A stretch of 64,000 nucleotides of DNA, taken from an uncultured Gammaproteobacteria bacterium. GTDB lineage: Bacteria; Patescibacteriota; Microgenomatia; UBA1406; GWC2-37-13. This document shows positions 2,258-23,744 of the stretch, in pieces. The notes beneath the pieces were generated by a model. That model did no database searches, had not been told where the DNA came from, and saw nothing but the letters and a program-made list of their open reading frames with translations. Within the stretch, counting starts at the first letter, position 1, and each line of letters begins with the position of its first letter. Where the stretch lies: contig CAZIUF010000001.1 in assembly GCA_964542665.1 (NCBI GenBank), positions 21,549 through 85,548 on the forward strand, read 5' to 3'. A program made the position numbers and the translations under genes.

Positions 2258-2339
2258 GGTGAAAAATTGAATGGTTTAATAACTAAAGTAATCACATAAT
2301 ACAATATTATTTTTGATTAGTAGATACCGCAATATATTT

Positions 2340-3311
2340 ATGACAGAGAATCCAGAAGGTGTTGATACTGCAGTTGCACAAGGGCGAGCTTCGTCAAGTA
2401 CTCCTGAAGCTGTGACTCAACAGGTAGCTCCTGCCGCCCAGGAAATTGATCCACAAGCAAGAGCGAGAAAAGAACAAATCGACGCTGCAACTGAATCCCT
2501 TCGCAGGGAATATGATCGAATAGGTTTGTCAGTAGATGAAGCTACTCTTAATACACAAGTAGTTGCAATGGTTGAGTCAAAGCACCCAGTCAAGTTAGTG
2601 AAAACCACTGTGGGTGAGGTTGCGCCCGGGAGTCAACCGTATTGGTCAAGAGGAGAATACCTAGGTCAACCTCAGTTTCGCTTTGACGAGCTTAAGGGAT
2701 TGTCTGATCTTGATCCCTATTCATCTAGCAAAGATAGTGGGAATCTTATGCCAATTGCCCTTCGAAGGAAAGTGATCACTGCACTTTGGCGTGCAGCCCA
2801 TACACAATCAACAATATCACCTCCAAATTGCCGGGGTATTTCAGTTGGGTCAAACGGTAACTCGTATTATTGCGAGTATGATCGGGCTTCGCATGTTATT
2901 CGGATGACTATCAACGGCACATCAATTGATATATCGAGGGAAAGAAAAGTTGCTACAACTCAAATAGCTTGGGTTTATGATGCAGATATGTTTGATGGTG
3001 TCGAAAAAAAGGCTGAAAACTGGGCACATCAGCAGCAATTATGGGAAGATGCGTGTAAATATGTTGGCGTCTTTCCAGAGATGGCAGGTTATGTTGCTAA
3101 TCTTAATCCGGAATCAGAAGATTGGGAACTAATAGATACTTCTACAGGCCAGGGAGTAAGTGGTGCGGTCGAACTTAGAGATAAAGAGGGTGCATCAGGT
3201 AAGTATATATTTCTGCCCGTGTTTGAACAGCCATTGCTTATACCTACAAACAACGAAGCTAAACTTATTCAACTTGCTCAGGCAATCCGCGATCGTTCAA
3301 AGAATGCGTAG
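2340..3311 (+). CDS. hypothetical protein (soluble orphan, starts MTE)
   Basis: Long ORF. The first ATG is at 2340; the track start at 2313 is TTG. No recognisable motif, TM helix or signal peptide. Confidence 0.6.
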   Translation: MTENPEGVDTAVAQGRASSSTPEAVTQQVAPAAQEIDPQARARKEQIDAATESLRREYDRIGLSVDEATLNTQVVAMVESKHPVKLVKTTVGEVAPGSQPYWSRGEYLGQPQFRFDELKGLSDLDPYSSSKDSGNLMPIALRRKVITALWRAAHTQSTISPPNCRGISVGSNGNSYYCEYDRASHVIRMTINGTSIDISRERKVATTQIAWVYDADMFDGVEKKAENWAHQQQLWEDACKYVGVFPEMAGYVANLNPESEDWELIDTSTGQGVSGAVELRDKEGASGKYIFLPVFEQPLLIPTNNEAKLIQLAQAIRDRSKNA

Positions 3312-3365: not shown

Positions 3366-3458
3366 TTAACTACTTTTCCACTCCTCTATCTTTTTATGAT
3401 CGCCGCCCATGAGGACTTCGGGGACTGATTGATCATCGTACTCTGCCGGACGAGTGTA
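3366..3458 (-). pseudogene. orphan copy of the last 30 codons plus stop of trmD
   Basis: Minus-strand reading gives [30 protein letters not shown]. Positions 3375-3458 match 4546-4629 at 74/84 nt with no indels. There is no upstream trmD body. Confidence 0.85.
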
Positions 3459-3485: not shown

Positions 3486-4520
3486 CTATTTCGATTCAGA
3501 CTGCTCTGAAGCGAACTGTGTCGGTATAGTCAAAACCTCTTTTTTTTCAGGACCGAGTGTCTTTACAGTCAGTTTTGCAAAGTGATCTTTCCATCGTCCT
3601 GCATATGTATGAACAATTGTGTTTGGATTACCAAACAACACCCTTCCCTCTTCGGTAGCAGTTAGGGCAGGATTGGTCATATCGACGAGCCAGACTCCCT
3701 GAGCAAAATCTGGAACCCTTAACTCTACGTTTCCAGAATCAACAGTGCGCATGTTTGGCGCTATCATCGAGAGTACATGCCCCTTACCATATGGCTTGTC
3801 ATAAGGAGCTACATCTTGTGATTTTATGCCAACATAAAGCACTGAGTATTGATCAGACATATGTTTACTTCGCAACCAATGACTAGCAAGAGAGGCGAAA
3901 ACGGCATTCATTTGAGCGCAGACACCCCCGTCTAATACTAGATTTTCGTGGAGTCCAATTGGCCCTTTTCTATTCAGGTCATCTGCCTTATCCATATCTT
4001 TGATGTAGGGGAAAAGTATGCCTTGGGCGACTCGGGCGATGGATGTAGGAAAGTCACGTGATCCTCCCGGTGTTTGTTCAATATCATGATCAACCATCGC
4101 CACCAAACCTCGAGTGATAGTTGACTCTATATGTCCTTCCCTCGCAATCTGTTCGGCATTTGCCGCATCAGCATGTGGACCCAGATACTCTGCCACTGAT
4201 TGAGGCACAACACTTGGGTCGGTAATTCTTACTTTCTTGAGTTCTTTTTTGGCGCTTTTGATATCACCAGGTACTACGTCATATCCTCGAGCAAATACAT
4301 GTGCAGCCTCACGGATAGCCTGTCCTGCCAATTCTATTTCCCCATTTTTCCATCGTCCTACTGCATTCTCTACTAGATCATGCACCTCATGTATTGTCTG
4401 ATGCCGATCATATAGAGTGGTATTTGGGAAAGATCCTTCTAGCCCATAGATGTCGTCATCTGTGTTTTCTATCTTAATTGGAATTTCTCCAGGCGGTATT
4501 AATCTAGTCTGTTCAACCAT
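3486..4520 (-). CDS. hypothetical protein (starts MVE); possible transglutaminase-like Cys-His-Asp fold
   Basis: ATG at 4520, 10 nt after the trmD stop. The longer track ORF to 4751 overlaps trmD. Motif order GGVCAQMNAVFASL ... GKGHVLSMI ... GVWLVDMTNP resembles the G-x-C / H / D core of transglutaminase-like peptidases. Confidence 0.6.
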   Translation of the reverse strand: MVEQTRLIPPGEIPIKIENTDDDIYGLEGSFPNTTLYDRHQTIHEVHDLVENAVGRWKNGEIELAGQAIREAAHVFARGYDVVPGDIKSAKKELKKVRITDPSVVPQSVAEYLGPHADAANAEQIAREGHIESTITRGLVAMVDHDIEQTPGGSRDFPTSIARVAQGILFPYIKDMDKADDLNRKGPIGLHENLVLDGGVCAQMNAVFASLASHWLRSKHMSDQYSVLYVGIKSQDVAPYDKPYGKGHVLSMIAPNMRTVDSGNVELRVPDFAQGVWLVDMTNPALTATEEGRVLFGNPNTIVHTYAGRWKDHFAKLTVKTLGPEKKEVLTIPTQFASEQSESK

Positions 4521-4530
4521 TAGTGTGTAT

Positions 4531-5160
4531 TTAGGAAAAAACTTCTTTCCACTCCTCAATCTTCTTATGATCCCCACCCATGAGGACTTCGGGGACTGAT
4601 TGACCATCGTACTCAGCGGGTCTGGTGTACTGAGGAGGTTCTTTTGTATATTTGGTATACGTCTCATTTTCTGCAACTCCATCTTTGGTGAACGTCCCGG
4701 GAAGAAGACGTACGACAGCATCAGTGATGACGGCAGCAGGCAACTCGCCACCAGTCAGGACGTACTCGCCGATTGAGATCTCTTCGTGAACATATTTCAG
4801 GATCCGCGCATCAACTCCCTCATAATGTCCACAGATGATCACGAGATGTTTTCGAGTGTCTGCATATTCACGAGCTTTTTTCTGAGTGAAAAGTGTTCCG
4901 CCAGCTGCGGTCAAGATGACATATGACTCATCAGTCACGACTGACTTGAGCGCTGCATGCAGCACATCGACTTTCATAATCATACCGGCTCCTCCGCCAT
5001 AGGGTCGATCATCGACAGAACCATATGAATCAGTTGCGAACTTCCGGATATCTACATAGTCCACCGTGACTGCGCCTTTTTTCTGGGCTTTGCCCACGAT
5101 CGAGGTCTCGAGGATACCTCGCATCATATCGGGGAAAAGGGTGAGTATGGTGATACGCAT
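4531..5160 (-). CDS. trmD: tRNA (guanine37-N1)-methyltransferase
   Basis: MRITILTLFPDMM...DDRPYGGGAGMIMK...ISIGEYVLTGGELPA. These are classic TrmD motifs. Confidence 0.95.
   Translation of the reverse strand: MRITILTLFPDMMRGILETSIVGKAQKKGAVTVDYVDIRKFATDSYGSVDDRPYGGGAGMIMKVDVLHAALKSVVTDESYVILTAAGGTLFTQKKAREYADTRKHLVIICGHYEGVDARILKYVHEEISIGEYVLTGGELPAAVITDAVVRLLPGTFTKDGVAENETYTKYTKEPPQYTRPAEYDGQSVPEVLMGGDHKKIEEWKEVFS
4546..4629 (-). repeat. proximal copy of the 84-nt direct repeat (functional trmD 3' end)
   Basis: Collinear with 3375-3458. There are 10 mismatches, 9 of them synonymous in the trmD frame. Confidence 0.9.
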
Positions 5161-5200: not shown

Positions 5201-5407
5201 ATGACAGGACAAATAATCATATATCTCATCCGCATCTATCAAAAGACCGAGCCAGTACGGGATGGTATCATGCGTCAGCTCCACTTCCCTCGACACATAT
5301 GTAAATACAATCCTACGTGTAGTGAAAATATGATTATCCAGATCCGTAATCATGGGCCAATAAAAGGGGTAGCGCTTGGATTCAAACAGATACTTTCATG
5401 TCACTAG
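5201..5407 (+). CDS. yidD: membrane protein insertion efficiency factor YidD
   Basis: Internal ATG of track ORF 5066-5407: MTGQIIIYLIRIYQK...CKYNPTCSENMIIQIRNHGPIKGVALGFKQILSCH. This carries the YidD signature (IRxYQ, C-x-Y-x-PTCS, RIL-x-CH). Confidence 0.85.
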   Translation: MTGQIIIYLIRIYQKTEPVRDGIMRQLHFPRHICKYNPTCSENMIIQIRNHGPIKGVALGFKQILSCH

Positions 5408-6028
5408 ACGGGCTTTGTATCCTGGATGAGATTTTGTGTGGCTAAACACAGGATAAAAGTCACCAGTCGAAATAAAATCTTCGTATTCTCCGAATTCAGT
5501 GATCACATCAAAGACTTCGAAGATCTTTGGTTCGACGAGAACTTTTCCTTTTTTAAGATTTTTTATCCACCCAGCTACTCGCTTAGGCACTTCAGAATCA
5601 GTGTGCCCTCCACACTCGATAACTACACCCCTTCGTACATGGATTAAGCTTCCATTAATAATATTTCCTGAACGCGGAAAATATACGGCATGCTCTATGC
5701 CTGCAATAGCGGCAAGTGCTGACATAGATCTATCTGTCACCACACAAAAAGGGACAGTGACATGTGATGCGGTGTGCAAATCTATTACAAATGCGTGGGA
5801 AGAAATCGTTTCCAATAGATAGCGCGCTCTACCCGATTCGTAATCAGAGCCATCGGTATTTTCAAATGCTCTATTGAGATCTTGATCTATATATCTCACA
5901 CGTTTTTCTAATGCCTGGGGATTGCCCACGAGATGTGGGACTCCAGCAAGCTGGAGTCCCTCAAGAGGGAGGGGTTCACTGCCGTGAACCCCTCCCACAA
6001 ATATGATCGACTCAAATGGGATGTGCAT
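5396..6028 (-). CDS. succinylglutamate desuccinylase/aspartoacylase (AstE/AspA) family protein, short form
   Basis: GGVHGSEPLP, RYIDQDLNRAF and VIDLHTAS match the family zinc-site motifs (GG-x-HG-x-E, DLNR, DLH). Confidence 0.75.
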   Translation of the reverse strand: MHIPFESIIFVGGVHGSEPLPLEGLQLAGVPHLVGNPQALEKRVRYIDQDLNRAFENTDGSDYESGRARYLLETISSHAFVIDLHTASHVTVPFCVVTDRSMSALAAIAGIEHAVYFPRSGNIINGSLIHVRRGVVIECGGHTDSEVPKRVAGWIKNLKKGKVLVEPKIFEVFDVITEFGEYEDFISTGDFYPVFSHTKSHPGYKARLVT

Positions 6029-6034
6029 ATATAT

Positions 6035-7066
6035 TTATGAAAAAGTAATTAGACCCGTTATTGAGTCTGATGATCCATGAATTTTGAGATTTGGTCGGGT
6101 GACATATGGACTCGGAATAAGTTCGTATTTTCCCGCATCTGTCATGACCGCAAATAGACGCATTAGTTTATGATGGGTAATTCCACCCTGATCTATGGTC
6201 CCAGTTGGAATAAATGGCTGACAAATACAAGGGCCTGAGCCAATTGCACGGGCCACTTGACTTCGTGTTGCCGATCCTTTTAATCCATTTGATTTTGGTA
6301 CCCAGACCTGCACATCTTTTCCTTTTGATCCATGTAAAGGTTTTACACAGCATGGTTGATCAAAATTAATATCTGCAGCTGTATTTACCAGAGTCGCCAT
6401 TCCCAAGCCTACCATATATGATTTATCACCGTGATCGATGAGAGGTGCTACAGATTTCGAATTGATTATTGTTAAAAGATCTTGACCAATCAGATCTCCA
6501 TCTTCTTTACCACCACGAGCCCATAGGTGGCCGTGGAAATTCACCATATCAAACGGATCTGAAAGATATGGTATTCGCGCTGCTTGAGCGAGCATAAGTG
6601 TGTCGATACTGCGATCGTGACCACCAGAAACGCCACGGACACTTGGAAGTACCGCACACGCAACCGGTTGCCCAGTCAAACGCGAAACACGTTCAAATAC
6701 ATCCGCGATCGGTTGTGCACCGTTCAGGATGCCGGTTAGTAGACCTAGACCCGATGGCCTCGCCTCGACTTCATAGATGCTCTGTTCTGGATGATTAGTA
6801 TCGACAATCGATGAGGCATCGATGCGTACGATCGGAGATGGAAGCCCAGTGATTTCTTGGAAGCGTGTTTTGTGTGGTTGACTAGTTTCTCTGTGCGCAG
6901 CGATGAAATCACCATTCAAGAAACCTTCAAAGGCATGCTTAACATGGACTGGAAGTTCCATTTCAGGACCGATGGTGAGTGCAAACTCACCATATGATGG
7001 TCGACATATTTCGGGTTGTTTTGGTATAGCATGACGCGCAAGCACGTCACACTCAATAGGTGACAT
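6035..7066 (-). CDS. hypothetical protein, possibly an ATP-grasp-like ligase with permuted motif order
   Basis: YEVEARPSGLG (E-x-N-x-RP-x-G-like) lies near residue 95 and VKPLHGSKGKDVQVW (KP-x-x-GS-x-G-like) near residue 240. It sits 6 nt upstream of the AstE-like gene. Confidence 0.4.
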   Translation of the reverse strand: MSPIECDVLARHAIPKQPEICRPSYGEFALTIGPEMELPVHVKHAFEGFLNGDFIAAHRETSQPHKTRFQEITGLPSPIVRIDASSIVDTNHPEQSIYEVEARPSGLGLLTGILNGAQPIADVFERVSRLTGQPVACAVLPSVRGVSGGHDRSIDTLMLAQAARIPYLSDPFDMVNFHGHLWARGGKEDGDLIGQDLLTIINSKSVAPLIDHGDKSYMVGLGMATLVNTAADINFDQPCCVKPLHGSKGKDVQVWVPKSNGLKGSATRSQVARAIGSGPCICQPFIPTGTIDQGGITHHKLMRLFAVMTDAGKYELIPSPYVTRPNLKIHGSSDSITGLITFS

Positions 7067-7213
7067 AGTTGTCTTCTTAAATTTTTAAACTGACGGTTTG
7101 GAGAAAGAAAGGGGTGAGGTGTTGTTAGCACCAAAAATACCGGGCGTAGAAAGCGAACGATCGTAGAGTGACTTTTGTGTTCATCCTGTATATAGTATAT
7201 CAGTAATTCATAG

Positions 7214-7261
7214 GTTTTAAAGTTTATGTTTCACATTTCATGTTTTATGGTTTATGTTTCA
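7214..7261. repeat. two 20-nt direct repeats, GTTTTAnnGTTTATGTTTCA, with a 28-nt period
   Basis: 7214-7233 and 7242-7261 are 18/20 identical. They lie just past the yerC-like stop and about 150 nt upstream of the 6035-7066 gene. Confidence 0.7.
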
Positions 7262-7265
7262 TGAT

Positions 7266-7517
7266 TTACAATCTCCCCAATTTTATTTCTCGTGCTCCTC
7301 GTGTCACTGTACCGACTCCTACTCCCAACTGGAGAGCAACTTTATGTTGGGGTGTACCTTTTTTGAGAAGTCTCACGATCTCGAGTCGCTGAGCGATCTC
7401 GAGTATTTCACTTTCGGTGAAAAGCCCATGCACTAGTTTGCGCATCGATGCGATGCCCTTGGTACTGAGTAGTAACCGAGCGATGATATCTGTTTTTTCA
7501 CTGATTTCATGCGGCAT
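7266..7517 (-). CDS. TrpR-like YerC/YecD family DNA-binding protein
   Basis: 83 aa. FTESEILEIAQRLEIVRLLKKGTPQHKVALQLGVGVGTVTRGAR matches the YerC/YecD HTH pattern. Confidence 0.8.
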   Translation of the reverse strand: MPHEISEKTDIIARLLLSTKGIASMRKLVHGLFTESEILEIAQRLEIVRLLKKGTPQHKVALQLGVGVGTVTRGAREIKLGRL

Positions 7518-7892: not shown

Positions 7893-8780
7893 ATGAAATT
7901 TTTCCTCGACTCGTGTGATCCAGCTGCGACCCGTGAGATGAAGTCAACGGTCGGCAAAATCGATGGCCAGACGACCAATCCCACCCTGCTCGTGAAAAAC
8001 CCTGAGGTCCAAAAGCGGATCCAAGGAGGTAAGATCAAAGAAGTAGATTTACTCGCTTTGTACAAGCAAGCTATCCAAGAGGTCGACTCAGTGATTCCCG
8101 GTGGTGCGATCTCCATCGAGGTCTACTCTGATTGGAATACCCCAGCCAAAGAGATGCTTCGTCAAGCTGAGAGTATGTATGCATGGATCCCCAATGCGTA
8201 TATGAAGTTCCCTACTATCCCCGAAGGGTTGAAGGCAGCATATGAGTTCACCTCAAAAGGTGGCCGAGTGAATATGACTCTCGTATTTGATCAAGAACAG
8301 GCAGCCGCAGTCTATAGTGCGACAAGAAATACGAAGTCACCTGCATTTGTGTCACCTTTCTTGGGTCGCTGGGATGACCGTGGGTATCAGGGTGTCGATC
8401 TGGTAAAAAATATCGTACAGATGTATCGCGCATTTGATAGCGTTCGTCATCCTGAGCAACGCGAAGGATCTCACAAGAAATCTCATGTCGAAGTCCTCGC
8501 CGCCTCCATCCGCACCATGGATCACTTTTATGCATCTATCGCATATGGCGCCGATATCATCACCGCTCCACTCGCGACCTTTCAGAGGTGGGTCAGTGAG
8601 GGTCGTAAGGTACCTGAAACGTTTGAGGTGTCAACGAAAAATCTCCAGTCGATCCCATACAAAGATCTACAATACACTGATGATTTCGCATCCTATCAGA
8701 TCGACCGGAGCGAAAGTGGACTCCTCCATCAAGGCCTCACCAAGTTTGTGAGTGATTGGGATGGAGTCGTGGAAAGATAG
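7893..8780 (+). CDS. tal: transaldolase family protein
   Basis: MKFFLDSCDP...GQTTNPTLL...EVLAASIR...GADIITAP. Start placed at the internal ATG that gives the canonical MKFFLD N-terminus. Confidence 0.85.
   Translation: MKFFLDSCDPAATREMKSTVGKIDGQTTNPTLLVKNPEVQKRIQGGKIKEVDLLALYKQAIQEVDSVIPGGAISIEVYSDWNTPAKEMLRQAESMYAWIPNAYMKFPTIPEGLKAAYEFTSKGGRVNMTLVFDQEQAAAVYSATRNTKSPAFVSPFLGRWDDRGYQGVDLVKNIVQMYRAFDSVRHPEQREGSHKKSHVEVLAASIRTMDHFYASIAYGADIITAPLATFQRWVSEGRKVPETFEVSTKNLQSIPYKDLQYTDDFASYQIDRSESGLLHQGLTKFVSDWDGVVER
8446..8473 (+). repeat. hairpin mini-repeat, copy 3, in-frame inside tal
   Basis: GTCATCC-TGAGCAACGCGAA-GGATCTCA. It encodes the VRHPEQREGSH segment just before the conserved EVLAASIR block. 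Confidence 0.6.
8748..8779 (+). repeat. proximal copy of the 32-nt direct repeat (functional tal 3' end)
   Basis: GTGAGTGATTGGGATGGAGTCGTGGAAAGATA(G) encodes VSDWDGVVER*. Confidence 0.85.
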
Positions 8781-8783
8781 GGA

Positions 8784-9038
8784 CTATCGCGGATCTTCTG
8801 GGTCTTGATCAGTCAGAGGAGACGTAGTATTCACCTTTGCTCCATCTATACTAGTGGTACCACGAACACCGCCTCCAGTACCTTCTATGGGTATTCTCCG
8901 ATGTGCAGTGATTGGTAGAGGCACATCATTTCGTGCCAACTGTTCTTGTGCTATTTGTCGTATATCGGGGACTGGTTTTGGTTCACCAGGTGGCCTTGTC
9001 ATTGTAATCATTGGGTTTCCAATTGAGTTTTCCGTCAT
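8784..9038 (-). CDS. hypothetical 84-aa protein (starts MTE), cargo of the tal-uppS insertion
   Basis: The only sizeable ORF in the 340-bp insert. There is a TTGATT-N17-TAATCT promoter-like sequence upstream on the minus strand. The protein is Pro/Gly/Thr-rich with no known motif. Confidence 0.4.
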   Translation of the reverse strand: MTENSIGNPMITMTRPPGEPKPVPDIRQIAQEQLARNDVPLPITAHRRIPIEGTGGGVRGTTSIDGAKVNTTSPLTDQDPEDPR

Positions 9039-9119
9039 CTTTAGATGAATAAACTAACTTATATAACAATCTTCTTAGATTACTCTCTCACTTTATAAAA
9101 ATCAAGCATTACTTATCTA

Positions 9120-9151
9120 GTGAGTGATTGGGATGGGGTGGTGGAAAGATG
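9120..9151 (+). repeat. distal copy of the 32-nt direct repeat (remnant tal end overlapping the uppS start)
   Basis: GTGAGTGATTGGGATGGGGTGGTGGAAAGATG(A) encodes the same VSDWDGVVER*, with TGA overlapping the uppS ATG (ATGA). Confidence 0.85.
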
Positions 9152-9868
9152 AGCTATAATCTGCACATGTCAGATGACAAAGTATCGGTTCCAGCCCACA
9201 TCGCCATTATCATGGACGGCAATCGTCGCTGGGCTCGTGCCCAGGGTAAGGAGTCACTCGAGGGTCACAAGGCAGGAGCTGAAAATCTCGAGCGCATTGC
9301 AGAATATGCCGCGTCTATCGGGGTCAAAACACTGACTGTCTATGCACTCTCAACTGAAAATCTCACCAGTCGTATGGGACGAGAACTGCAAGGACTCTTT
9401 GACCTACTTGTCTGGGGATTCAAACATAAAATCAAAAAGCTGGTCGAAAAAGGTGTGCGGGTGAATGTACTTGGCGATGTGACTCAACTTCCTAAAACAC
9501 TCCAAAGACTCATCGCTTCGCTGAAGCAAACATATAAGGACAAAGAGTCATTTACACTCAACATCGCACTCAACTATGGGAGTAAACAAGAGATCCTACA
9601 CGCAGTCAAGGCACTGATTAAAGACGGTATCGATATCAACAAGATGACTGAGAGTGATATCACATCGCGACTCTATACCAAAGATCAACACGAGCCAGAT
9701 CTGGTGATTCGTACCGGTGGCCAAGTGCGACTTTCGAATTTCTTACTCTGGCAATCCAGCTATAGCGAGCTTTACTTTACCAAAACCTTCTGGCCTGACT
9801 TTGGCCCTGCCCAACTGGACGAAGCTGTCGCTTGGTACCAAGAACAAAAACGCAACTTTGGAAAATAA
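9149..9868 (+). CDS. uppS: undecaprenyl diphosphate synthase
   Basis: HIAIIMDGNRRWA, ALSTENL and RTGGQVRLSNFLLWQ motifs. The start is taken at the ATG that overlaps the remnant tal stop. Confidence 0.9.
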   Translation: MSYNLHMSDDKVSVPAHIAIIMDGNRRWARAQGKESLEGHKAGAENLERIAEYAASIGVKTLTVYALSTENLTSRMGRELQGLFDLLVWGFKHKIKKLVEKGVRVNVLGDVTQLPKTLQRLIASLKQTYKDKESFTLNIALNYGSKQEILHAVKALIKDGIDINKMTESDITSRLYTKDQHEPDLVIRTGGQVRLSNFLLWQSSYSELYFTKTFWPDFGPAQLDEAVAWYQEQKRNFGK

Positions 9869-9988: not shown

Positions 9989-10891
9989 ATGAACCTCTCT
10001 ATCCCACTCGATGTTGCATCAAGTGCTCGTCTGACCTATGAGGCAAATATGGAGCGGATCACCTACGGTACCGGACGACTCTTCCTCTTTGCGGGAGATC
10101 AAAAACTAGAGCATATGAATGATGATTATTTTGGTGCAGATACTCATCCTGATGATGCCAATCCTGAGCATCTATTTCGGATCGCGAGCAAAGCCAAAGT
10201 GGGCGCATTCGCCTCACAGCTGGGACTCATTGCACGCTATGGTGCTGACTACAAAGACGTTCCCTATATCGTCAAGATGAATGCAAAAACAGATCGGGTA
10301 AAAACTGAACAAGCTGATCCGATATCTCGCCAGTGGCAGACCACAGAACAACTGATGAAATTCAAAAAGCAATCAGGGCTCAATATCGTTGGTATTGGCT
10401 ACACCATCTATCCTGGAAGTGAAAATGAGAGCGTCATGTATCGAGAAGCGGCCCAACTCATCTTTGAAGCACATCAACAAGGTCTGGTGACGGTCATTTG
10501 GGCGTATGCACGTGGCAAAGCAATCAAAAATGAAAAGGACCCACACATCTCTGCCGGATGTGCCGGTATTGGTGCGTGTCTGGGAACGGATTTCGTCAAA
10601 GTGAATCCACCAAAATCTGAAACGATGTCCCAAGGTGAAGCACTCAAGGAGTCAGTGCAAGCTGCGGGTCGCACCGGCGTCATCTGTGCAGGTGGATCGT
10701 CACAGCCAATCCCTGAGTTTTTGCAGACACTCCATGACCAGATACATATTGCTGGATGTCGTGGCAATGCGACTGGTCGCAATATCCATCAAAGGTCACT
10801 TGAAGATGCTGTAAAGCTGTGTGACGCAATTCATGCGATCACCAACGAAGATGTGAGTGTTGAAAAAGCACTATCAATCATCAACTCATGA
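9989..10891 (+). CDS. class I fructose-bisphosphate aldolase (DhnA/FbaB-like)
   Basis: 300 aa with LFLFAGDQKLEH, YIVKMNAKT and TDFVKVNPP (Schiff-base Lys context), typical of the archaeal-type class I aldolase family. Confidence 0.75.
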   Translation: MNLSIPLDVASSARLTYEANMERITYGTGRLFLFAGDQKLEHMNDDYFGADTHPDDANPEHLFRIASKAKVGAFASQLGLIARYGADYKDVPYIVKMNAKTDRVKTEQADPISRQWQTTEQLMKFKKQSGLNIVGIGYTIYPGSENESVMYREAAQLIFEAHQQGLVTVIWAYARGKAIKNEKDPHISAGCAGIGACLGTDFVKVNPPKSETMSQGEALKESVQAAGRTGVICAGGSSQPIPEFLQTLHDQIHIAGCRGNATGRNIHQRSLEDAVKLCDAIHAITNEDVSVEKALSIINS

Positions 10892-11820
10892 TCACACTCA
10901 ATCAGTTTATAATCCAAGCAAAACACCCAAAGTTAAATTCTGATGATGGCTTCATCATCCTGATGACTGTGTTGGAAAATGCAGTGAAAATGATCGAAAC
11001 TCATGTGAGTAAAATGGGATTAGCCGACCTCATGGAAAAAACCACAGACGTGAACTCATCTGGAGAAGAAATAAAAAAAATCGATCAAGTAGCTAACGAT
11101 ATCCTCATCAAAATGCTGTCCGAGTCTGGACAAATATCTCGACTAGCCTCAGAGGAAGTCGAGGAAATGATATATACTCCCTATCCAAAAGCTCCATACG
11201 AAATATATTTTGATCCGCTAGATGGTGCCAGTAATATCAATATCGGTGGCATGCTTGGAGTGATTTTTTCTATCTATCACAGTGGTCCAAAGGGCTCTCT
11301 CCCTCGTGGTGAAGAGCAAATAGCTGCTGGTTATGTCCTCTATGGCTCATCTACTATCTTGGTGTATGCCACACATGATGGAGTGAATGGGTTTACGCTT
11401 GACCCAGCGAGCGGATGCTTCCTTCTGTCGCATATCAATATGACTATGCCTCAAAAAGCCATCTACTACTCGATCAATGAAGGATATGCCAGTCACTTTA
11501 GCGATAAAACCAATAGATTTTTAAAAAACATCAAAAAAGCTGGAACGATAAAAGGTCGAAATCTTGGATGTATGTGCGCAGATTTTCATAATGCGCTTAT
11601 AAATGGTGGCGTCTATCTCTATCCAGCCAATAAAAAAGATCCACAGGGTAAGATCCGGCTCATGTATGAGATAAACCCCATGTCATTCATCGCTCAGATT
11701 GCTGGCGGGTCAGCATCCGTAGATGGGCAAGATCCTCTCAAGCTCTCCCCATCTTCTTTGCATCAAAAAATGGATTTTGTAGTTGGTAGTAAGGATATCG
11801 TATCTCAGTACAATGCATAA
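10888..11820 (+). CDS. fbp: fructose-1,6-bisphosphatase class 1
   Basis: LASEEVEEM...FDPLDGASNINIG...GKIRLMYE motifs. It overlaps fba by 4 nt. Confidence 0.85.
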   Translation: MITLNQFIIQAKHPKLNSDDGFIILMTVLENAVKMIETHVSKMGLADLMEKTTDVNSSGEEIKKIDQVANDILIKMLSESGQISRLASEEVEEMIYTPYPKAPYEIYFDPLDGASNINIGGMLGVIFSIYHSGPKGSLPRGEEQIAAGYVLYGSSTILVYATHDGVNGFTLDPASGCFLLSHINMTMPQKAIYYSINEGYASHFSDKTNRFLKNIKKAGTIKGRNLGCMCADFHNALINGGVYLYPANKKDPQGKIRLMYEINPMSFIAQIAGGSASVDGQDPLKLSPSSLHQKMDFVVGSKDIVSQYNA

Positions 11821-11909
11821 CCCTCTTCTTTGCGCTTCACGCTCATTTTTGGTATAGTGAGACCAGTTCAATGTATCAGTTGTATTAGTCATAAGTTATT
11901 TTAAGTCCT

Positions 11910-17046: not shown

Positions 17047-20000
17047 TCACAGTCTGGTTATGACTATATTACGACATGTGTTAGATTGTGCATCTGCTGA
17101 ACATGTATAAACAAGACTACACGATGTTTTTGAATTGGGAGGAATAATATCGATAATATTATTGCTCAGATTGCCTCCAGGCGCTCCAACACAATTATCT
17201 GTTCCACCAACTAAGATCGGTTTTATTGCTGATTCGCTGCAATAGAGTCCATCATCAGTAACTATGGTTACGCGATTGCCAGGTATGGTTACTGGCAGAA
17301 CTACAGGCTGGGGACCATGAGAGCCACCTTGATAACGCAAAGATGTTAACGGATCTAATGGGCAGTTGACACCAATATCTGCTTGACTACGATCCACCAG
17401 TAGTTCAACTTGGTTGAAGCTATTAGTTTTATTTTCTTTCTTACAATATGAAGCATTGGTCAGATACCAAGTGCCTGTAGTCTTCGGTACAAAGGTAACT
17501 GCTCTCTCTCCGCTTACCTCATAGATAAAGTCATCATTTGCATCTTGTTGACTGATAGTGGCGCTTTGTGTTAGTACGTCATATCCGGGCAGTGTGATAA
17601 ATGCATGTGCATCGGCGTTTGAGTTTATCATTGTCAATCTCAAAGCAGTGTCTTTTGTGATCGAAATTTCTGCTGGACTCGCAACACCACAGTCAAATGA
17701 GACGGTTTTTTCCACTGGAACCACATCTGCTGCTACCATAGTCAAGCTTGAGTCAAGTCCTCCAGTTGCGCGCTTGAGTTGTGCGATTTGGACGGTATTG
17801 GCGACATTGAGGATGCTCACACCCACAAGCAGCGCGCTTGCAACAGCAACACCTCCTGCAATGGTCTGATGGACCAAGAGACGTGAGAGCAATGCTCTTG
17901 CAGCACTATCTGCGCCAGGGTTAGAAACTTTGATGATGAGAGCATGCTTTGATTGGAGTTTGAGAACGATAAAGAGCGCACCAAATCCAAGTACTCCAAA
18001 TACGAGCGGAGCAATCAAACTATTTCCTGTATCGGCAAGTGTACCCCCTTTGGTGGTGACACCAGCAACGACACCATCATAAGTGAGCGATACGTCTGCA
18101 CAGTCGTCTTCTTTGTTCTTGCCTCCATCACAGTTATTTGGTGTTGAGTCAGTATCCTGCTGTTCTGCATGATATACCTCGGCGAGATTGGTGAGTGCGT
18201 CTCTACTGACTACGAGAACTTTGATCTTCAGGGTTTGAGTCGAGAGCGCATTGAGATTGCCAATCGTCCAGATACCACCCGCCTGGTCGTATTGACCATA
18301 GCTCGTCTCATGAGAAAGGTATGCAAATGAGCTGGTGAGTAAATCTTTGACTTTGACATTGAGCGCTCCGACTGCTGACTCGTTGGCGATAGTGATAGTG
18401 AACTCGACTCTGTCGCCTATCTTCACCTTTGATTTATCAACAGACTTGATCAGCTTCAGATCGATCTTGGCCGGTGTTGGGGTAAGAGTTGGGGTGACGG
18501 GTGGAATAGTGACTGATGGAGTTATCCCGGTAGGATTAGGCGAAACTGATGGGGAAATAGATGGCGATACTGACGGAGAGACCGATGGGGAAATAGATGG
18601 TGAGACTGATGGCGAAGGTGAAGGGGATGGAGTTGCAGTGACATCAATACACTTGATATCGTTTGCTGTACTACCAAACCGACTAATTACATTGGTCCCA
18701 GTTACGACAGCTTTGTCACATATACTCGCTGAGGTTCTTGTGCCGAGTGGATACGTCACTGCATAGATGACGCTCGCATATGACTCACTTGATGGATATT
18801 TTTTAAGAGTCAGATTTGTTTTCCCTGCACTGACTGCAAGCATGGCTTTGTTCGAAACTCCGTTGAAAGCGGTATTGATCTGTGCGCTGCGTAGATTGAT
18901 GCCATAAACTGAACCGGCAATCAGCGAGACTGGTCCTGTTGCTGCACTATTTTCCATATCGTCAGTGATCTGTACATTTTCGACATCTTCTGTAATGCTG
19001 ATATTTTTCACCGTGATCATATATGAGATCGTTCTGCTTACATCGAGAGTATCTATAACAGAGACTATGCGCTTCTCTGTCACGAGTGCATTTGTAGGTG
19101 CCGTCTGACAGTCAGCGCTTGCAGGGTACGCTTCATTGACACATTTGTTTGTGGTGGGTGAGCAATAGTTCGTCGTGCACTGTGCATTTTGAGTACAAGC
19201 TTCCTGACAGGCCAGTTTCCGGGATTGATAATGAGCAGGATTTGTGACTGGTGTCAAAGCAATGTTGTTATATTTTGCATTCAAAGTTGCTGTGTTTTCA
19301 ATGTCACCATCAAGAGCTCCATTTGTGGCAGATGCTGTACAAATCATTTCACTATTGGGAGCAAGGGAGGGACCACCTGTACAGACAAAGGGTGATATTT
19401 GCGAGTGGCCATTTTGGGTATTGAGAAGATCTGTAATTGCTACTTCATTCAAAGTGACATTACCGGTATTTTTAGCAGTGAATCGATATTGCACTTGTAC
19501 ACTCGCATTGATGATTGGTTTTGGACCATTGGCGGTATCGGCTGGTAGATAGTCGGCTGCTGTGCCACCCTTCACATCTTTGAGGAGCGTCATTGCAGGA
19601 GATCCGGTCGGACAGTTAGTGACAACGTCAGCGCTCCAATCACCGTCGCATGACAAAGTATTGGTGGTTGTTTCGTTTGCATCGCCGTCAGTAAGGATCG
19701 CTGTGCACTGATGACAGGTGATATAACGAGACGCACTGCAGGATTGAGATGTTACACCCCCGTTGATACCTCCACAAGTCCAGCTAACCGTCTCTCCAGG
19801 TGCAGGAAACGGTACGGGACTCGGACTCGGTGTTCCAACACCACACAATGTGCTGTTTTGAGGATAGCTGCTCACCGTTGCTCCATATGGAGTGGGTGAG
19901 CTTGCGGTACCGCACGTGCCATTGATTTTTTCAGGAGCCTGACATGTAACTGATGATGATGGGAAAGTACCTGTGCATGTCCACGACCATCGGTGATTTA

Positions 20001-21042
20001 TAGTATCGTGGGTAACAGTAGATGCAGTCCCTGAGGTACACAGAGTGCCGGTTGGCTCAGTATATGTTGGGTTGGTAAGTGCGCTATTGCACACAGCTGG
20101 TATGGTCCTGTTTGCACTACACGAAGGAGTAGCGCCCCCGTTCAGCCCCCCACATGACCATGTCCACCCTGTAGCGGTGGTAATGAAATTGGCCACTGAG
20201 CCAGTACTACAGAGACTTGGTGTGTTTAGAAGGTCGTTCTGATTGCTTCCATTTATGCTGCTACTACATACACCGTCGATGGGAATCGGTTCTATATCAA
20301 TGATGATATTGGCTGGACTAGTACCAGGACCATTCAACGCATTGACGAGTACTGCGGGGCTACCTATTGGCTCAGTGCCATCGCGTGTTACAAGATAGTT
20401 TTGTCCCTTGACCCTATATCCATCAGGAGGAGTTGTGTTACGTACAAAAAGATATGTCTTATTGATTCTACCGTCGCAATTTCCTCCACACCAATTACCT
20501 ATGTTATTTCCACCGATAATATTTGGAGGGTTAGTACTGCGTATGTAGTTTGAACAAACATCGTTGAACCGAGTGTCGTTATTATTGAATCCAGCAACAA
20601 TAGGATTGTTATTTGCGGTGAATGTAAATAGCGGACACGAACTATTTATACAAGATATATACGATTGGTCTATAGATCTATCAGCACACCTAGTGGCACC
20701 AGTATCTGACCAGGAACACAAATAATACATATAGTTTTTGGCTGCAGTTGCTGCATCTGTTGATACAATTTTTTCCTCTGGATCATTTGAAAATATATAC
20801 CTACCCTCGCTATCTGTTCGTGAACTGACAGACCCCTCAAACTTGACATAGGTATTGCCCTCAAAGTGCCCTCCCTGCTTACTCACTATCTGACCAGTAG
20901 CATTCACAATAGCTCCAGTATCAACATAACGAAATTTAACATTGCCTTTGATAGTCCCAGGTATACCTGCCCATACAGGCATCACCGCACTAAAGTAAGT
21001 GATAATCAAGATGAGTATGGTGACGACGTATTTCAACTTCAT
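17047..21042 (-). CDS. giant surface protein (1331 aa): signal peptide, CarboxypepD_reg-like domain, 3 four-Cys modules, DUF11-like repeats, SP/TP linker, internal LADTG sorting signal, second TM helix, cupredoxin-like tail
   Basis: MKLKYVVTILILIITYFSAVMPVWAG signal. Repeated YRFTAKNTGNV / ITVKNIS / FTITIANES DUF11-like strands. TLADTGNSLIAPLVFGVLGFGALFIVLKLQSKH lies about 325 aa before the C-terminus. Confidence 0.85.
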   Translation of the reverse strand: MKLKYVVTILILIITYFSAVMPVWAGIPGTIKGNVKFRYVDTGAIVNATGQIVSKQGGHFEGNTYVKFEGSVSSRTDSEGRYIFSNDPEEKIVSTDAATAAKNYMYYLCSWSDTGATRCADRSIDQSYISCINSSCPLFTFTANNNPIVAGFNNNDTRFNDVCSNYIRSTNPPNIIGGNNIGNWCGGNCDGRINKTYLFVRNTTPPDGYRVKGQNYLVTRDGTEPIGSPAVLVNALNGPGTSPANIIIDIEPIPIDGVCSSSINGSNQNDLLNTPSLCSTGSVANFITTATGWTWSCGGLNGGATPSCSANRTIPAVCNSALTNPTYTEPTGTLCTSGTASTVTHDTINHRWSWTCTGTFPSSSVTCQAPEKINGTCGTASSPTPYGATVSSYPQNSTLCGVGTPSPSPVPFPAPGETVSWTCGGINGGVTSQSCSASRYITCHQCTAILTDGDANETTTNTLSCDGDWSADVVTNCPTGSPAMTLLKDVKGGTAADYLPADTANGPKPIINASVQVQYRFTAKNTGNVTLNEVAITDLLNTQNGHSQISPFVCTGGPSLAPNSEMICTASATNGALDGDIENTATLNAKYNNIALTPVTNPAHYQSRKLACQEACTQNAQCTTNYCSPTTNKCVNEAYPASADCQTAPTNALVTEKRIVSVIDTLDVSRTISYMITVKNISITEDVENVQITDDMENSAATGPVSLIAGSVYGINLRSAQINTAFNGVSNKAMLAVSAGKTNLTLKKYPSSESYASVIYAVTYPLGTRTSASICDKAVVTGTNVISRFGSTANDIKCIDVTATPSPSPSPSVSPSISPSVSPSVSPSISPSVSPNPTGITPSVTIPPVTPTLTPTPAKIDLKLIKSVDKSKVKIGDRVEFTITIANESAVGALNVKVKDLLTSSFAYLSHETSYGQYDQAGGIWTIGNLNALSTQTLKIKVLVVSRDALTNLAEVYHAEQQDTDSTPNNCDGGKNKEDDCADVSLTYDGVVAGVTTKGGTLADTGNSLIAPLVFGVLGFGALFIVLKLQSKHALIIKVSNPGADSAARALLSRLLVHQTIAGGVAVASALLVGVSILNVANTVQIAQLKRATGGLDSSLTMVAADVVPVEKTVSFDCGVASPAEISITKDTALRLTMINSNADAHAFITLPGYDVLTQSATISQQDANDDFIYEVSGERAVTFVPKTTGTWYLTNASYCKKENKTNSFNQVELLVDRSQADIGVNCPLDPLTSLRYQGGSHGPQPVVLPVTIPGNRVTIVTDDGLYCSESAIKPILVGGTDNCVGAPGGNLSNNIIDIIPPNSKTSCSLVYTCSADAQSNTCRNIVITRL
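18025..18039 (-). other. LADTG (LAXTG-type) sortase recognition motif, internal to the ORF
   Basis: Codons CTT GCC GAT ACA GGA on the minus strand, followed by a hydrophobic helix and a KLQSKH charged patch. Confidence 0.7.
18549..18620 (-). repeat. tandem 36-nt coding repeat (SPS[IV]SPSVSPSV linker)
   Basis: GATGGGGAAATAGATGG recurs with a 35-36-nt period on the plus strand and encodes the Ser-Pro linker. Confidence 0.7.
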
Positions 21043-23075: not shown

Positions 23076-23744
23076 CTATAGCTCTACTGGTAGTGCTCTG
23101 ACGACCAGTCGCTGTTTTGAAGTCCAGAGTGGGGTGCATGTATAGAGCGTCAGGGCAGACTCTGTGCTTGGCTCCTCTATTTCTACGTCTTCGGGTTCAA
23201 CTACTTTCACCTCATCGACTCGATAGGAGTACTCTTTACCACCCCAATATACGATGATATCGTCCCCTTTTGATACTTTATTGAGATCATAAAAAGTATT
23301 TGGGCCAGATGTATAGAGGAAGCGGTGACCCGTGATCACTGTATTGCCGCCTTTGTCAGGCGTAGAGGTTTTTGGCCGACGCCAAAAACCTCGATTGAGT
23401 GTCTGAGCATCTGCACCATCCAGGATAGGAGCATCAACGTTGATCTTTGGGATCACCAGTGTATTAGCAGTGGGTATGGCTTTCAGATCGTTTGGTTTTG
23501 TTTTAATGAGTCCCTTTTTTATCATCTCTCGAGCAAAGCTCGATTGATATACATATCCACCTGTTTTATCGGTGGATTTGCGCCACAGTCCAACGATCTC
23601 TCCTGCAAAAGGCGTCCATAATATATAGGTGATGAGGATGAGGAAGATGATCGTGAGAAACCGGTTCACGAGGGCAAGGATCCGATCAACTGGGTCCTCA
23701 GCGAGAGTAAACATGGTGGCGTGCTTAGATGAGTCCTGGGGCAT
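23076..23744 (-). CDS. sortase (class E-like by its LAXTG substrate)
   Basis: N-terminal TM helix, ITGHR (catalytic His), TLYTCTP (TL-x-TC catalytic Cys) and a conserved Arg near the C-terminus. Confidence 0.85.
   Translation of the reverse strand: MPQDSSKHATMFTLAEDPVDRILALVNRFLTIIFLILITYILWTPFAGEIVGLWRKSTDKTGGYVYQSSFAREMIKKGLIKTKPNDLKAIPTANTLVIPKINVDAPILDGADAQTLNRGFWRRPKTSTPDKGGNTVITGHRFLYTSGPNTFYDLNKVSKGDDIIVYWGGKEYSYRVDEVKVVEPEDVEIEEPSTESALTLYTCTPLWTSKQRLVVRALPVEL

Follow-up and report, generated by a model that had tools for sequence, protein, structure and literature searches.

How can a bacterium whose genes abut take up a new one without harm to either neighbour? The question is raised by a 64-kb stretch of patescibacterial DNA (the window, meaning here the whole stretch analysed), in which the 3′ end of the transaldolase gene tal occurs twice, on either side of a short insert in front of uppS, the gene of undecaprenyl-diphosphate synthase. 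Bacteria of the candidate phyla radiation (CPR/Patescibacteria) have tiny, tightly packed genomes, and to our knowledge their ways of acquiring genes are poorly understood. Comparison with relatives shows that the insert is a recent, lineage-specific insertion of a single cassette, and that it lies at a population-level hot spot, the last 30–50 nucleotides (nt) of tal.

The split tal-uppS junction

The two copies of the tal end (GTGAGTGATTGGGATGGAGTCGTGGAAAGATAG and GTGAGTGATTGGGATGGGGTGGTGGAAAGATGA; Table 1) are spaced 372 nt apart and identical at 29 of 33 positions. Both translate as VSDWDGVVER and then stop, with GGA/GGG and GTC/GTG as synonymous differences and TAG/TGA as a change of stop codon. 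The distal copy runs out as ...GAAAGATGAGC, with an ATG at 9149. On all these points, including a repeat that it gave as 32 nt long, the first-pass annotation of this DNA had read the letters correctly. A repeat scan of the window recovers the pair as 31 nt at 94% identity, and the identity is lost abruptly at both edges. The only other long dispersed repeats in the window are a pair at trmD (84 nt, 88%). Likewise, when 61 gene-like open reading frames (ORFs) of the window were scanned at the protein level, only trmD and tal had their C-terminus repeated at a displaced position. Chance is ruled out as the source of the tal repeat, as only 2.6e-6 pairs of 31 nt with at most two mismatches are expected in a window of 64 kb. 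A tandem duplication of the tal/uppS region is ruled out as well, the insert being unlike either flanking gene.

Relatives were gathered via the Tal protein and their loci numbered L001–L021; the Tal orthologues are 80–95% identical to that of the window, and the closest named relative is Candidatus Roizmanbacteria (L002; Tal 80% identical, syntenic). At L001, L002/L009, L008, L012, L013/L014, L018 and L019, which span the same range of Tal identity, the site is empty: a single 31-nt tal end leads directly into ...GAAAGATGAGCTATAATCT...uppS, a state seen in eight independent assemblies. With BLAST, the lone copy of L008 and L012 aligns with both copies of the window, and next to its distal copy the window has the intact junction of these relatives. 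Because the relatives carry one copy that runs into uppS, and the distal flank matches that very junction, 8779–9119 is a lineage-specific insertion. Searches of the insert against the window and all fetched loci with blastn and tblastx returned no match and no second copy. The annotation had proposed that the tal-uppS junction was uninterrupted until an insertion split it and left the tal 3′ end in duplicate, and the empty sites support it; a spacer common to all relatives, with no uninterrupted junction anywhere, is not what the loci contain. The loci discussed below come from JGI 3300045319 (L015), SRR13287428 (L018), GCA_020051655.1 and SRR11088420 (L020/L021), SRR7054521 and SRR12350683 (L016/L017), and SRR29061995 and SRR29061993 (L013/L014).

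One of the empty loci, L001 (CAZJWN010000049.1), is labelled uncultured Gammaproteobacteria. It is syntenic with the Roizmanbacteria-like locus of the window at 79–96% identity, and the contig is probably mis-binned. Its Tal carries an internal insertion of ~30 amino acids (aa), as does P0007.

Table 1. Features at the duplicated tal and trmD ends (positions in the window)
Feature	Position	Strand	Remarks
tal (transaldolase) coding sequence	7893..8780	+	Pfam TAL_FSA, E=5.7e-42; last 33 nt are the proximal copy, stop TAG
Proximal copy, the working tal terminus	8748..8780	+	VSDWDGVVER, TAG; past the core GTGAGTGATTGGGATGG, 3 of 12 bases differ from L018
Inserted DNA, 341 nt	8779..9119	.	missing from every relative sampled
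ORF84, 84 aa	8784..9038	-	convergent with tal; stop 3 nt past the tal stop; orphan
AT-rich (28-32% GC) region upstream of ORF84	9039..9119	.	uppS-proximal cassette end
Distal copy, the displaced ancestral tal terminus	9120..9152	+	stop TGA; runs on into the ancestral junction sequence
TATAAT, candidate -10 element	9155..9160	+	invariant in 11 loci; 6-7 nt upstream of the conserved uppS ATG
uppS (undecaprenyl-diphosphate synthase)	9167..9868	+	Pfam Prenyltransf, E=3.6e-76; start conserved in all relatives
Displaced trmD terminus, ending SS and stop	3375..3458	-	10 base differences from the live copy
ORF344, cargo of the trmD-end insertion	3486..4520	-	same direction as trmD; orphan; GC3 0.35
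trmD	4531..5160	-	Pfam tRNA_m1G_MT; 3′ end 4546-4629 is the live copy

What does the insert contain? The opposite-strand ORF of 84 aa noticed in the first-pass annotation is indeed there (ORF84, Table 1). So is the AT-rich DNA upstream of it, but the promoter proposed within that DNA (TTGATT-N17-TAATCT) stayed below the scan threshold: a sigma-70-like search of 8600–9300 that required a -35 element gave 0 sites. The ORF84 protein finds only itself among 5.8 billion proteins. An exhaustive phmmer search of 1.84 billion cluster representatives gave one further match, P0123, which is spurious, being a translated tandem repeat that sums many weak matches of ~20 aa. Exact-sequence look-ups of tal and ORF84 returned no record. 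None of the other five frames reaches the codon score of ORF84 (0.13), but the coding signal is ambiguous: the score lies between what in-frame and out-of-frame sequences give, at the 11th percentile for real genes, and is matched or exceeded by 6% of wrong frames. The stop-free run of 89 codons that contains ORF84 is equalled in 7% of shuffles of the insert. The GC contents of its three codon positions (GC1/GC2/GC3) are 0.60/0.52/0.28, in the order GC1 > GC2 > GC3 seen in the other cargoes described below. A small orphan gene is one possibility for ORF84; the other is that it is no more than the longest ORF of some captured DNA. A structured RNA was rejected as the content of the insert, the fold z-scores of -1.1 and -0.3 giving no excess structure, and Rfam had no match in 8600–9300 at E<=1.

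On the other side of the remnant lies uppS, which the annotation had seen as overlapping tal by ATGA and as translationally coupled to it. The uninterrupted junction is real, as described above; coupling through ATGA is unsupported, since in L001 and L018 the ATG corresponding to 9149 does not share the uppS frame, and it offers an alternative uppS start in this genome only. The ATG at 9167 (MSDDK...) is in frame with uppS in 11 of 11 loci. Between the two ATGs, GAGYTATAATCT is invariant and is followed by a variable spacer of 6–7 nt with a 1-nt indel before the second ATG. A conserved TATAAT with a variable spacer would fit a -10 element better than coding sequence, and TATAAT is a candidate -10 element for an uppS transcript with no leader or almost none.

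Other cassettes at the tal and trmD ends

Is ORF84 the only occupant of this site? In L020/L021 (Tal 91%), tal ends in VSDWDGLIDR and a stop, followed by a reverse-strand radical-SAM gene and then by a displaced tal end, CCAAGTTTGTGAGTGATTGGGATGGGG. L015 (Tal 89%) carries three tal ends in series, in the order tal, copy 1 (VVEG, stop TAG), ORF350 (reverse), copy 2, the radical-SAM gene (reverse), copy 3 and uppS, which amounts to tandem accretion at one site. Its copy 3 is the ancestral GAAAGATGAGC junction, and its copy 2 encodes ...QGLTKFVSDWDGLIDR and a stop, that is, the working tal end of L020. Since the middle end of L015 equals the working end of L020, L015 is, from its order of termini, the L020 state plus one more insertion. 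Finally, in L016/L017 (Tal 92%) tal ends in VVA (stop TAG), with an unrelated reverse-strand gene, cargo X, 8 nt further on.

One stretch of ~50 nt has thus received at least four cargoes (ORF84, the radical-SAM gene, ORF350 and X). All four are convergent with tal, and they share no similarity with one another. The tal-site cassettes are single-gene units of 0.34–1.1 kb built to one plan, exactly one ORF with 55–85 nt of upstream DNA, and the GC3 of the cargoes is 0.28–0.39 vs 0.43–0.52 in the flanking core genes. The recurrent gain of cassettes at gene 3′ ends that the first-pass annotation had suspected is borne out, L020/L021, L015 and L016/L017 adding three unrelated cargoes. Empty, one-cassette and two-stacked states among near-identical flanks mean that gene gain has here been captured in progress.

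Could the architecture be an assembly artefact, a chimeric metagenome join at a short repeat? The source is evidently metagenome-assembled and the ORF84 insert is present in one assembly only. However, with 4 of 33 positions different between the two copies, no collapse in the assembly graph is expected, and the insert is tightly packed, its ORF ending 3 nt past the tal stop. Moreover, the same architecture is present in independent assemblies (L015, L020, L021, L016, L017), and since these occupied sites come from independent projects (JGI, NCBI, Logan) it is not the artefact of one assembler. We consider this explanation extremely improbable.

A companion case is found at the 3′ end of trmD in the same window (Table 1). 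Here the cargo is ORF344, whose protein again finds only itself among 5.8 billion proteins; its AlphaFold2 model (pLDDT 35) is uninformative. The live and displaced trmD ends differ by 9 synonymous and 1 non-synonymous changes. Identity to L011 is 94% and 90% for the two copies and ~92% for the gene body, and with L011 and L009 as outgroups the polarity is ambiguous. Between the tal core and the trmD repeat there is no convincing common site. As a separate observation, the trmD tail past ...EEWK is different in each relative (EVFS, SS, ETNETTK, KTTSTN or NQIQKT, each before the stop), and the downstream DNA differs too. Between an SOD-like (superoxide dismutase-like) gene and the trmD remnant lies ORF332 (2313–3311, + strand; GC3 0.31), which has no family match; L009/L002 have only 110 nt in its place. 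On the other side, between trmD and a trpR-like gene, an AstE/AspA-like gene and ORF343 (5396–7066), both low in GC3, form a block that is present in L011, with ORF343 as two ORFs, and in L015, and absent from L009/L002 and L013/L014. Searches of Pfam, PHROG and NCBIfam gave no match for ORF84, ORF344, ORF332, ORF343, ORF350 or X.

Origin and spread of the cassettes

Every tal-site cassette gives tal a new terminus with its own stop codon and moves the earlier terminus downstream. Are the new ends made on the spot? A staggered break at the tal 3′ end could have captured stray DNA, with fill-in leaving a 31-nt target-site duplication that was altered later by substitutions or allelic recombination. 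The window pair taken by itself agrees with this: both copies share GTGAGT with the closest relatives, their only coding differences are two at third positions that are polymorphic in the population (GGA/GGG, GTN), and the synonymous excess, 2 of 2, is not significant (p ~0.11). IS1634-family transposases, for their part, make long and variable duplications. There are, however, no terminal inverted repeats and no transposase, and the sister cases cannot be local duplicates. The LIDR end of L020 has the same length as VVER, with a conservative replacement at each position and its own stop. Natural Tal C-termini include …LLDK, …LIEK and …VIEK, and LIDR falls within that range. As a natural variant of the family it is, judged by its residues, a foreign terminus and cannot be a local duplicate of VVER. 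At trmD, one selected and one neutrally decaying copy would give ~33% synonymous changes, and at least 9 of 10 then has p=3e-4; local duplication followed by neutral decay is rejected for that pair. With the tal and trmD pairs combined, the synonymous excess reaches p=4e-5, and from this pattern of substitution each copy still belonged to a working gene while the two diverged. Additionally, both window copies differ from L018 past the core in an otherwise 100% identical background, which points to the import of a module. For the ORF84 cassette we regard local duplication as quite improbable.

The flanks are mosaic. Between -150 and the end of the core, the empty locus L018 matches the window at 100% identity; of the next 12 bases 3 differ, and both window copies depart from L018 just past the core. 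The window uppS is 100% identical to that of L015 over columns 60–240 and to that of L018 over columns 120–240, while across the remnant and the spacer the window is only 88–90% identical to each of them. Divergence that is concentrated at the junction, within otherwise identical backgrounds, suggests that the whole module (new end, cargo and remnant) was imported rather than formed in place. Likewise, L015 and L016 agree at 99% of positions as far as the core, past which their tails and cargoes differ, and in L020 the nearest relative changes ~150 nt upstream of the stop. Three junction states, ORF84 in the window, empty in L018 and ORF350 plus the radical-SAM gene in L015, occur between flank stretches that are 100% identical over roughly 130–180 nt. 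From these shared flanks, cassette turnover is fast compared with point substitution and recombination in the population is frequent.

The edges of the duplicated segments, sampled in 4–5 events together with the end motifs, vary. Counted from GTGAGT, the left edge of the remnant falls at 0, -8 or -24, depending on the event, and identity with the ancestral end stops at +18, ~+23, ~+27 or +31. The duplicated segments measure ~26, 31, ~42 and 84 nt. Common to all copies is only a 17-nt core, at the end of the most strongly conserved block in the 3′ part of tal.

The reading that we favour, with belief and doubt about equally balanced, is that cassette modules spread and stack by homologous recombination, each type having first been made by a one-ended event akin to homology-facilitated illegitimate recombination (HFIR). 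Ready-made modules of new end, cargo and remnant would pass between closely related genomes. The left anchor would be the nearly invariant block ...CAAGGCCTCACCAAGTTTGTGAGTGATTGGGATGG, and the right anchor the remnant or uppS. For stacking, an incoming remnant would recombine with the resident tal end, and successive events would leave nested remnants, as in L015. The origin of a cassette type would combine homologous pairing in tal with an illegitimate join on the other side, in donor DNA that would already have a tal end abutting the cargo. No cassette-encoded recombinase would be involved, though one acting in trans might take the place of the HFIR-like event at the origin of a type. Mosaic tracts that end at heterology and variable junctions without a consensus, both expected of HFIR with homologous recombination, are what we found.

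Why would the remnant be kept? UppS is essential. The remnant may be retained since the old tal end lies directly upstream of the putative uppS expression signals (TATAAT and the ATG at 9167). A viable insertion would have to restore the tal end and also leave the old end before uppS, and only duplicating insertions would do both. If the uppS control region lies within the last few dozen bases of tal, this would explain the retention of the remnant as well as its minimum length. An insertion between abutting essential genes would in this way be harmless to both, as a new gene end is brought along and the old end serves as the upstream region of the neighbour. Selection alone is not the full explanation, since the trmD case lies outside the argument from uppS signals and yet shows a duplication: in L009, trmD has a downstream spacer of 110 nt, and the window trmD still carries its 84-nt duplication.

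Several points weigh against spread by homologous recombination from HFIR-like beginnings. Four cargoes in a stretch of ~50 nt, in constant convergent orientation and as one-ORF units, look too orderly for random illegitimate joins, and this order suggests a dedicated trans-acting mechanism. No donor with ORF84 beside a tal end was found, and the cargoes are orphans. The p of ~0.11 for the window pair leaves room for a local 31-nt target duplication in the case of the ORF84 cassette. The promoter role of TATAAT is putative, being suggested by conservation. Finally, the contig is at least 140 kb long and the search for machinery spanned 64 kb of it; a recombinase could be encoded elsewhere in the genome.

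That order is better explained by site-specific integration, in which the cassettes would be mini or decayed elements resembling cis-mobilizable elements (CIMEs), moved by a tyrosine or serine recombinase encoded elsewhere, with GTRAGYGATTGGGATGG as the attB core and the tal-end copies as attL and attR; repeated integration at that att site would stack them. Reuse of one site, constant orientation (4 of 4 cargoes) and single-gene unit size would follow, and the direct repeat with the 3′ end of the target gene, the terminus supplied by the element, the empty sites, the stacking in L015 and the 17-nt core in all copies agree with it. On the other hand, no recombinase is present in any of the five cassettes or in the 64-kb window. 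No arm or end sequences exceed chance, and the edges of the duplicated segments vary between events. Units of 0.34–1.1 kb are also far below the known size of CIMEs, and the tal core and the trmD repeat lack a convincing site in common. We hold site-specific integration to be a real contender, though doubtful. Domain scans for an integrase, transposase, homing endonuclease or reverse transcriptase were negative among the cargoes and 48 window ORFs. The only gene of the window linked to DNA transfer is one for a VirD4/TraG-like type IV coupling protein (59462–61825; TrwB_AAD_bind, T4SS-DNA_transf).

Terminal inverted repeats are absent from the cassette ends, and no k-mer at these ends is in excess over shuffled controls (p>=0.12). 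GCATTA, CATT and GTGGAAAG, suggestive by eye as shared end motifs, did no better than the shuffled controls and were dropped. Other known elements were rejected on similar grounds. A transposon, insertion sequence or miniature inverted-repeat transposable element would not fit, as there are no inverted repeats, no transposase domain and no second insert copy in the window or loci. A fixed-length target-site duplication is incompatible with the spread of segment lengths given above, with copies that differ mainly at synonymous sites and with one foreign terminus. An integron cassette was rejected because 8600–9300 has no attC-like Rfam match, the ends have no inverted repeat and the window has no integrase. 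Against a diversity-generating retroelement, the tal copies differ by A/G and C/G and the trmD copies in mixed ways, hence without adenine specificity, and no reverse transcriptase domain occurs in the window.

Homing would also account for the geometry: an endonuclease would cut cassette-free tal ends, and repair would copy the cassette together with a cleavage-resistant terminus. Fungal mitochondrial mobile ORFs (mORFs) have the same arrangement and a mostly synonymous divergence of termini (PMC3630166), and the hot spot lies in a highly conserved coding block. Yet the cargoes contain no LAGLIDADG, GIY-YIG, HNH or other nuclease domain, are mutually unrelated and include a radical-SAM enzyme, and the structure model of ORF344 does not help. 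This explanation is very improbable.

A bolder reading would make the cassettes a system of these CPR bacteria that works without a recombinase gene on the cassette, in which a portable terminus of a housekeeping gene acts as homing arm and repair patch and lets cassettes insert, stack and swap at the tal and trmD ends. We put it forward tentatively and think it unlikely. Such a system may form an integron-like array with fragments of coding sequence as separators, and it may be driven by RecA at short homologies or by some as yet unrecognised enzyme in trans. A dedicated mechanism, if there is one, would make this a cassette platform of a new class. As a signature, a gene's own C-terminus displaced within a few kilobases downstream is searchable in all genomes and would reveal hot spots together with orphan cargo.

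Elsewhere in the window, the other indels relative to L009 (2257–3374, 5405–7270 and 10843–11826) have no flanking duplications. The indel at 10843–11826 is a deletion in L009: the FBPase (fructose-bisphosphatase) gene at 10888–11820 is deleted in L009/L002, with a recognisable 3′ remnant (L009 12536–12826). In L001 the FBPase gene is much more divergent than its neighbours, and a replacement is possible. Two near-identical 20-nt direct repeats, GTTTTAAAGTTTATGTTTCA and GTTTTATGGTTTATGTTTCA, lie 28 nt apart near the 3′ end of the trpR-like gene (7214–7261), at the right edge of the 5405–7270 block that is missing from L009. Further on, 17047–21042 encodes a DUF11/DUF7507 protein of 1331 aa with an array of 12-nt tandem repeats (4-aa units, G-E/D-T/I-D) at 18539–18634; as a sortase gene lies nearby (23076–23744), it is probably a surface protein.

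Comparison with known systems

The geometry described here is known from integrative elements at gene 3′ ends and from mORFs, and a new mechanism is not demonstrated. Among the former, CIMEs are defined by the loss of the genes for integration and transfer while both attL and attR persist, and their accretion is known (PMC5704250). In Dehalococcoides, islands at ssrA stand in tandem, with 20-bp repeats of the ssrA 3′ end between them, and the authors suggest that some islands may be cis-mobilizable elements without integration or transfer genes (PMC3146451). The tal cassettes share with these systems, including the integrative and conjugative elements, integrative and mobilizable elements and CIMEs of Streptococcus, the flanking direct repeats of the 3′ end, the restored gene end, the empty sites and the stacking (PMC5704250, PMC3146451). 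They differ in that no integrase lies in the cassettes or nearby, no conserved arms stand out in the 4–5 events sampled and the edges vary. Integrative elements measure kilobases to tens of kilobases; the units at tal are single genes of 0.34–1.1 kb, and their hosts are CPR/Patescibacteria.

The fungal mORFs follow the order gene core, inserted foreign C-terminus, ORF and native C-terminus (atp6 of Allomyces; atp6, atp9, cox2 and nad3 of Glomus), their termini differ largely synonymously and the remnant is most like that of close relatives (PMC3630166). The tal cassettes have the same order, the same largely synonymous divergence and a remnant that is likewise closest to near relatives. However, the mitochondrial ORFs encode LAGLIDADG or GIY-YIG endonucleases, to which they owe their mobility, while the cargoes at tal have no nuclease domain and are mutually unrelated. 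Membership in both known systems breaks down at the defining enzyme, as no recombinase and no endonuclease lies in the cassettes or the 64-kb window, and also at the unit size and, in the events sampled, at the lack of conserved ends. In a limited search of the literature we found no description of such arrays at the termini of protein genes in CPR bacteria.

HFIR usually deletes or replaces recipient DNA instead of duplicating it. During DNA uptake, HFIR joins a one-sided homologous anchor to a non-homologous end, with variable junctions without consensus and mosaic tracts that end at heterology (PMC3240628). The tal site is alike in its junctions and tracts and, on the reading favoured here, in its anchor. 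It is unlike HFIR in the reuse of a ~50-nt site and the constant orientation of the cargo, for which selection for intact tal and uppS would be needed. Integrons, finally, differ from the tal site by their IntI, attI and attC-like palindromes, none of which it has, its separator being housekeeping coding sequence. Nevertheless, the tal cassettes resemble integron cassettes as small, mostly single-ORF units that stack, in constant orientation, at a single site and carry unrelated, often orphan cargoes.

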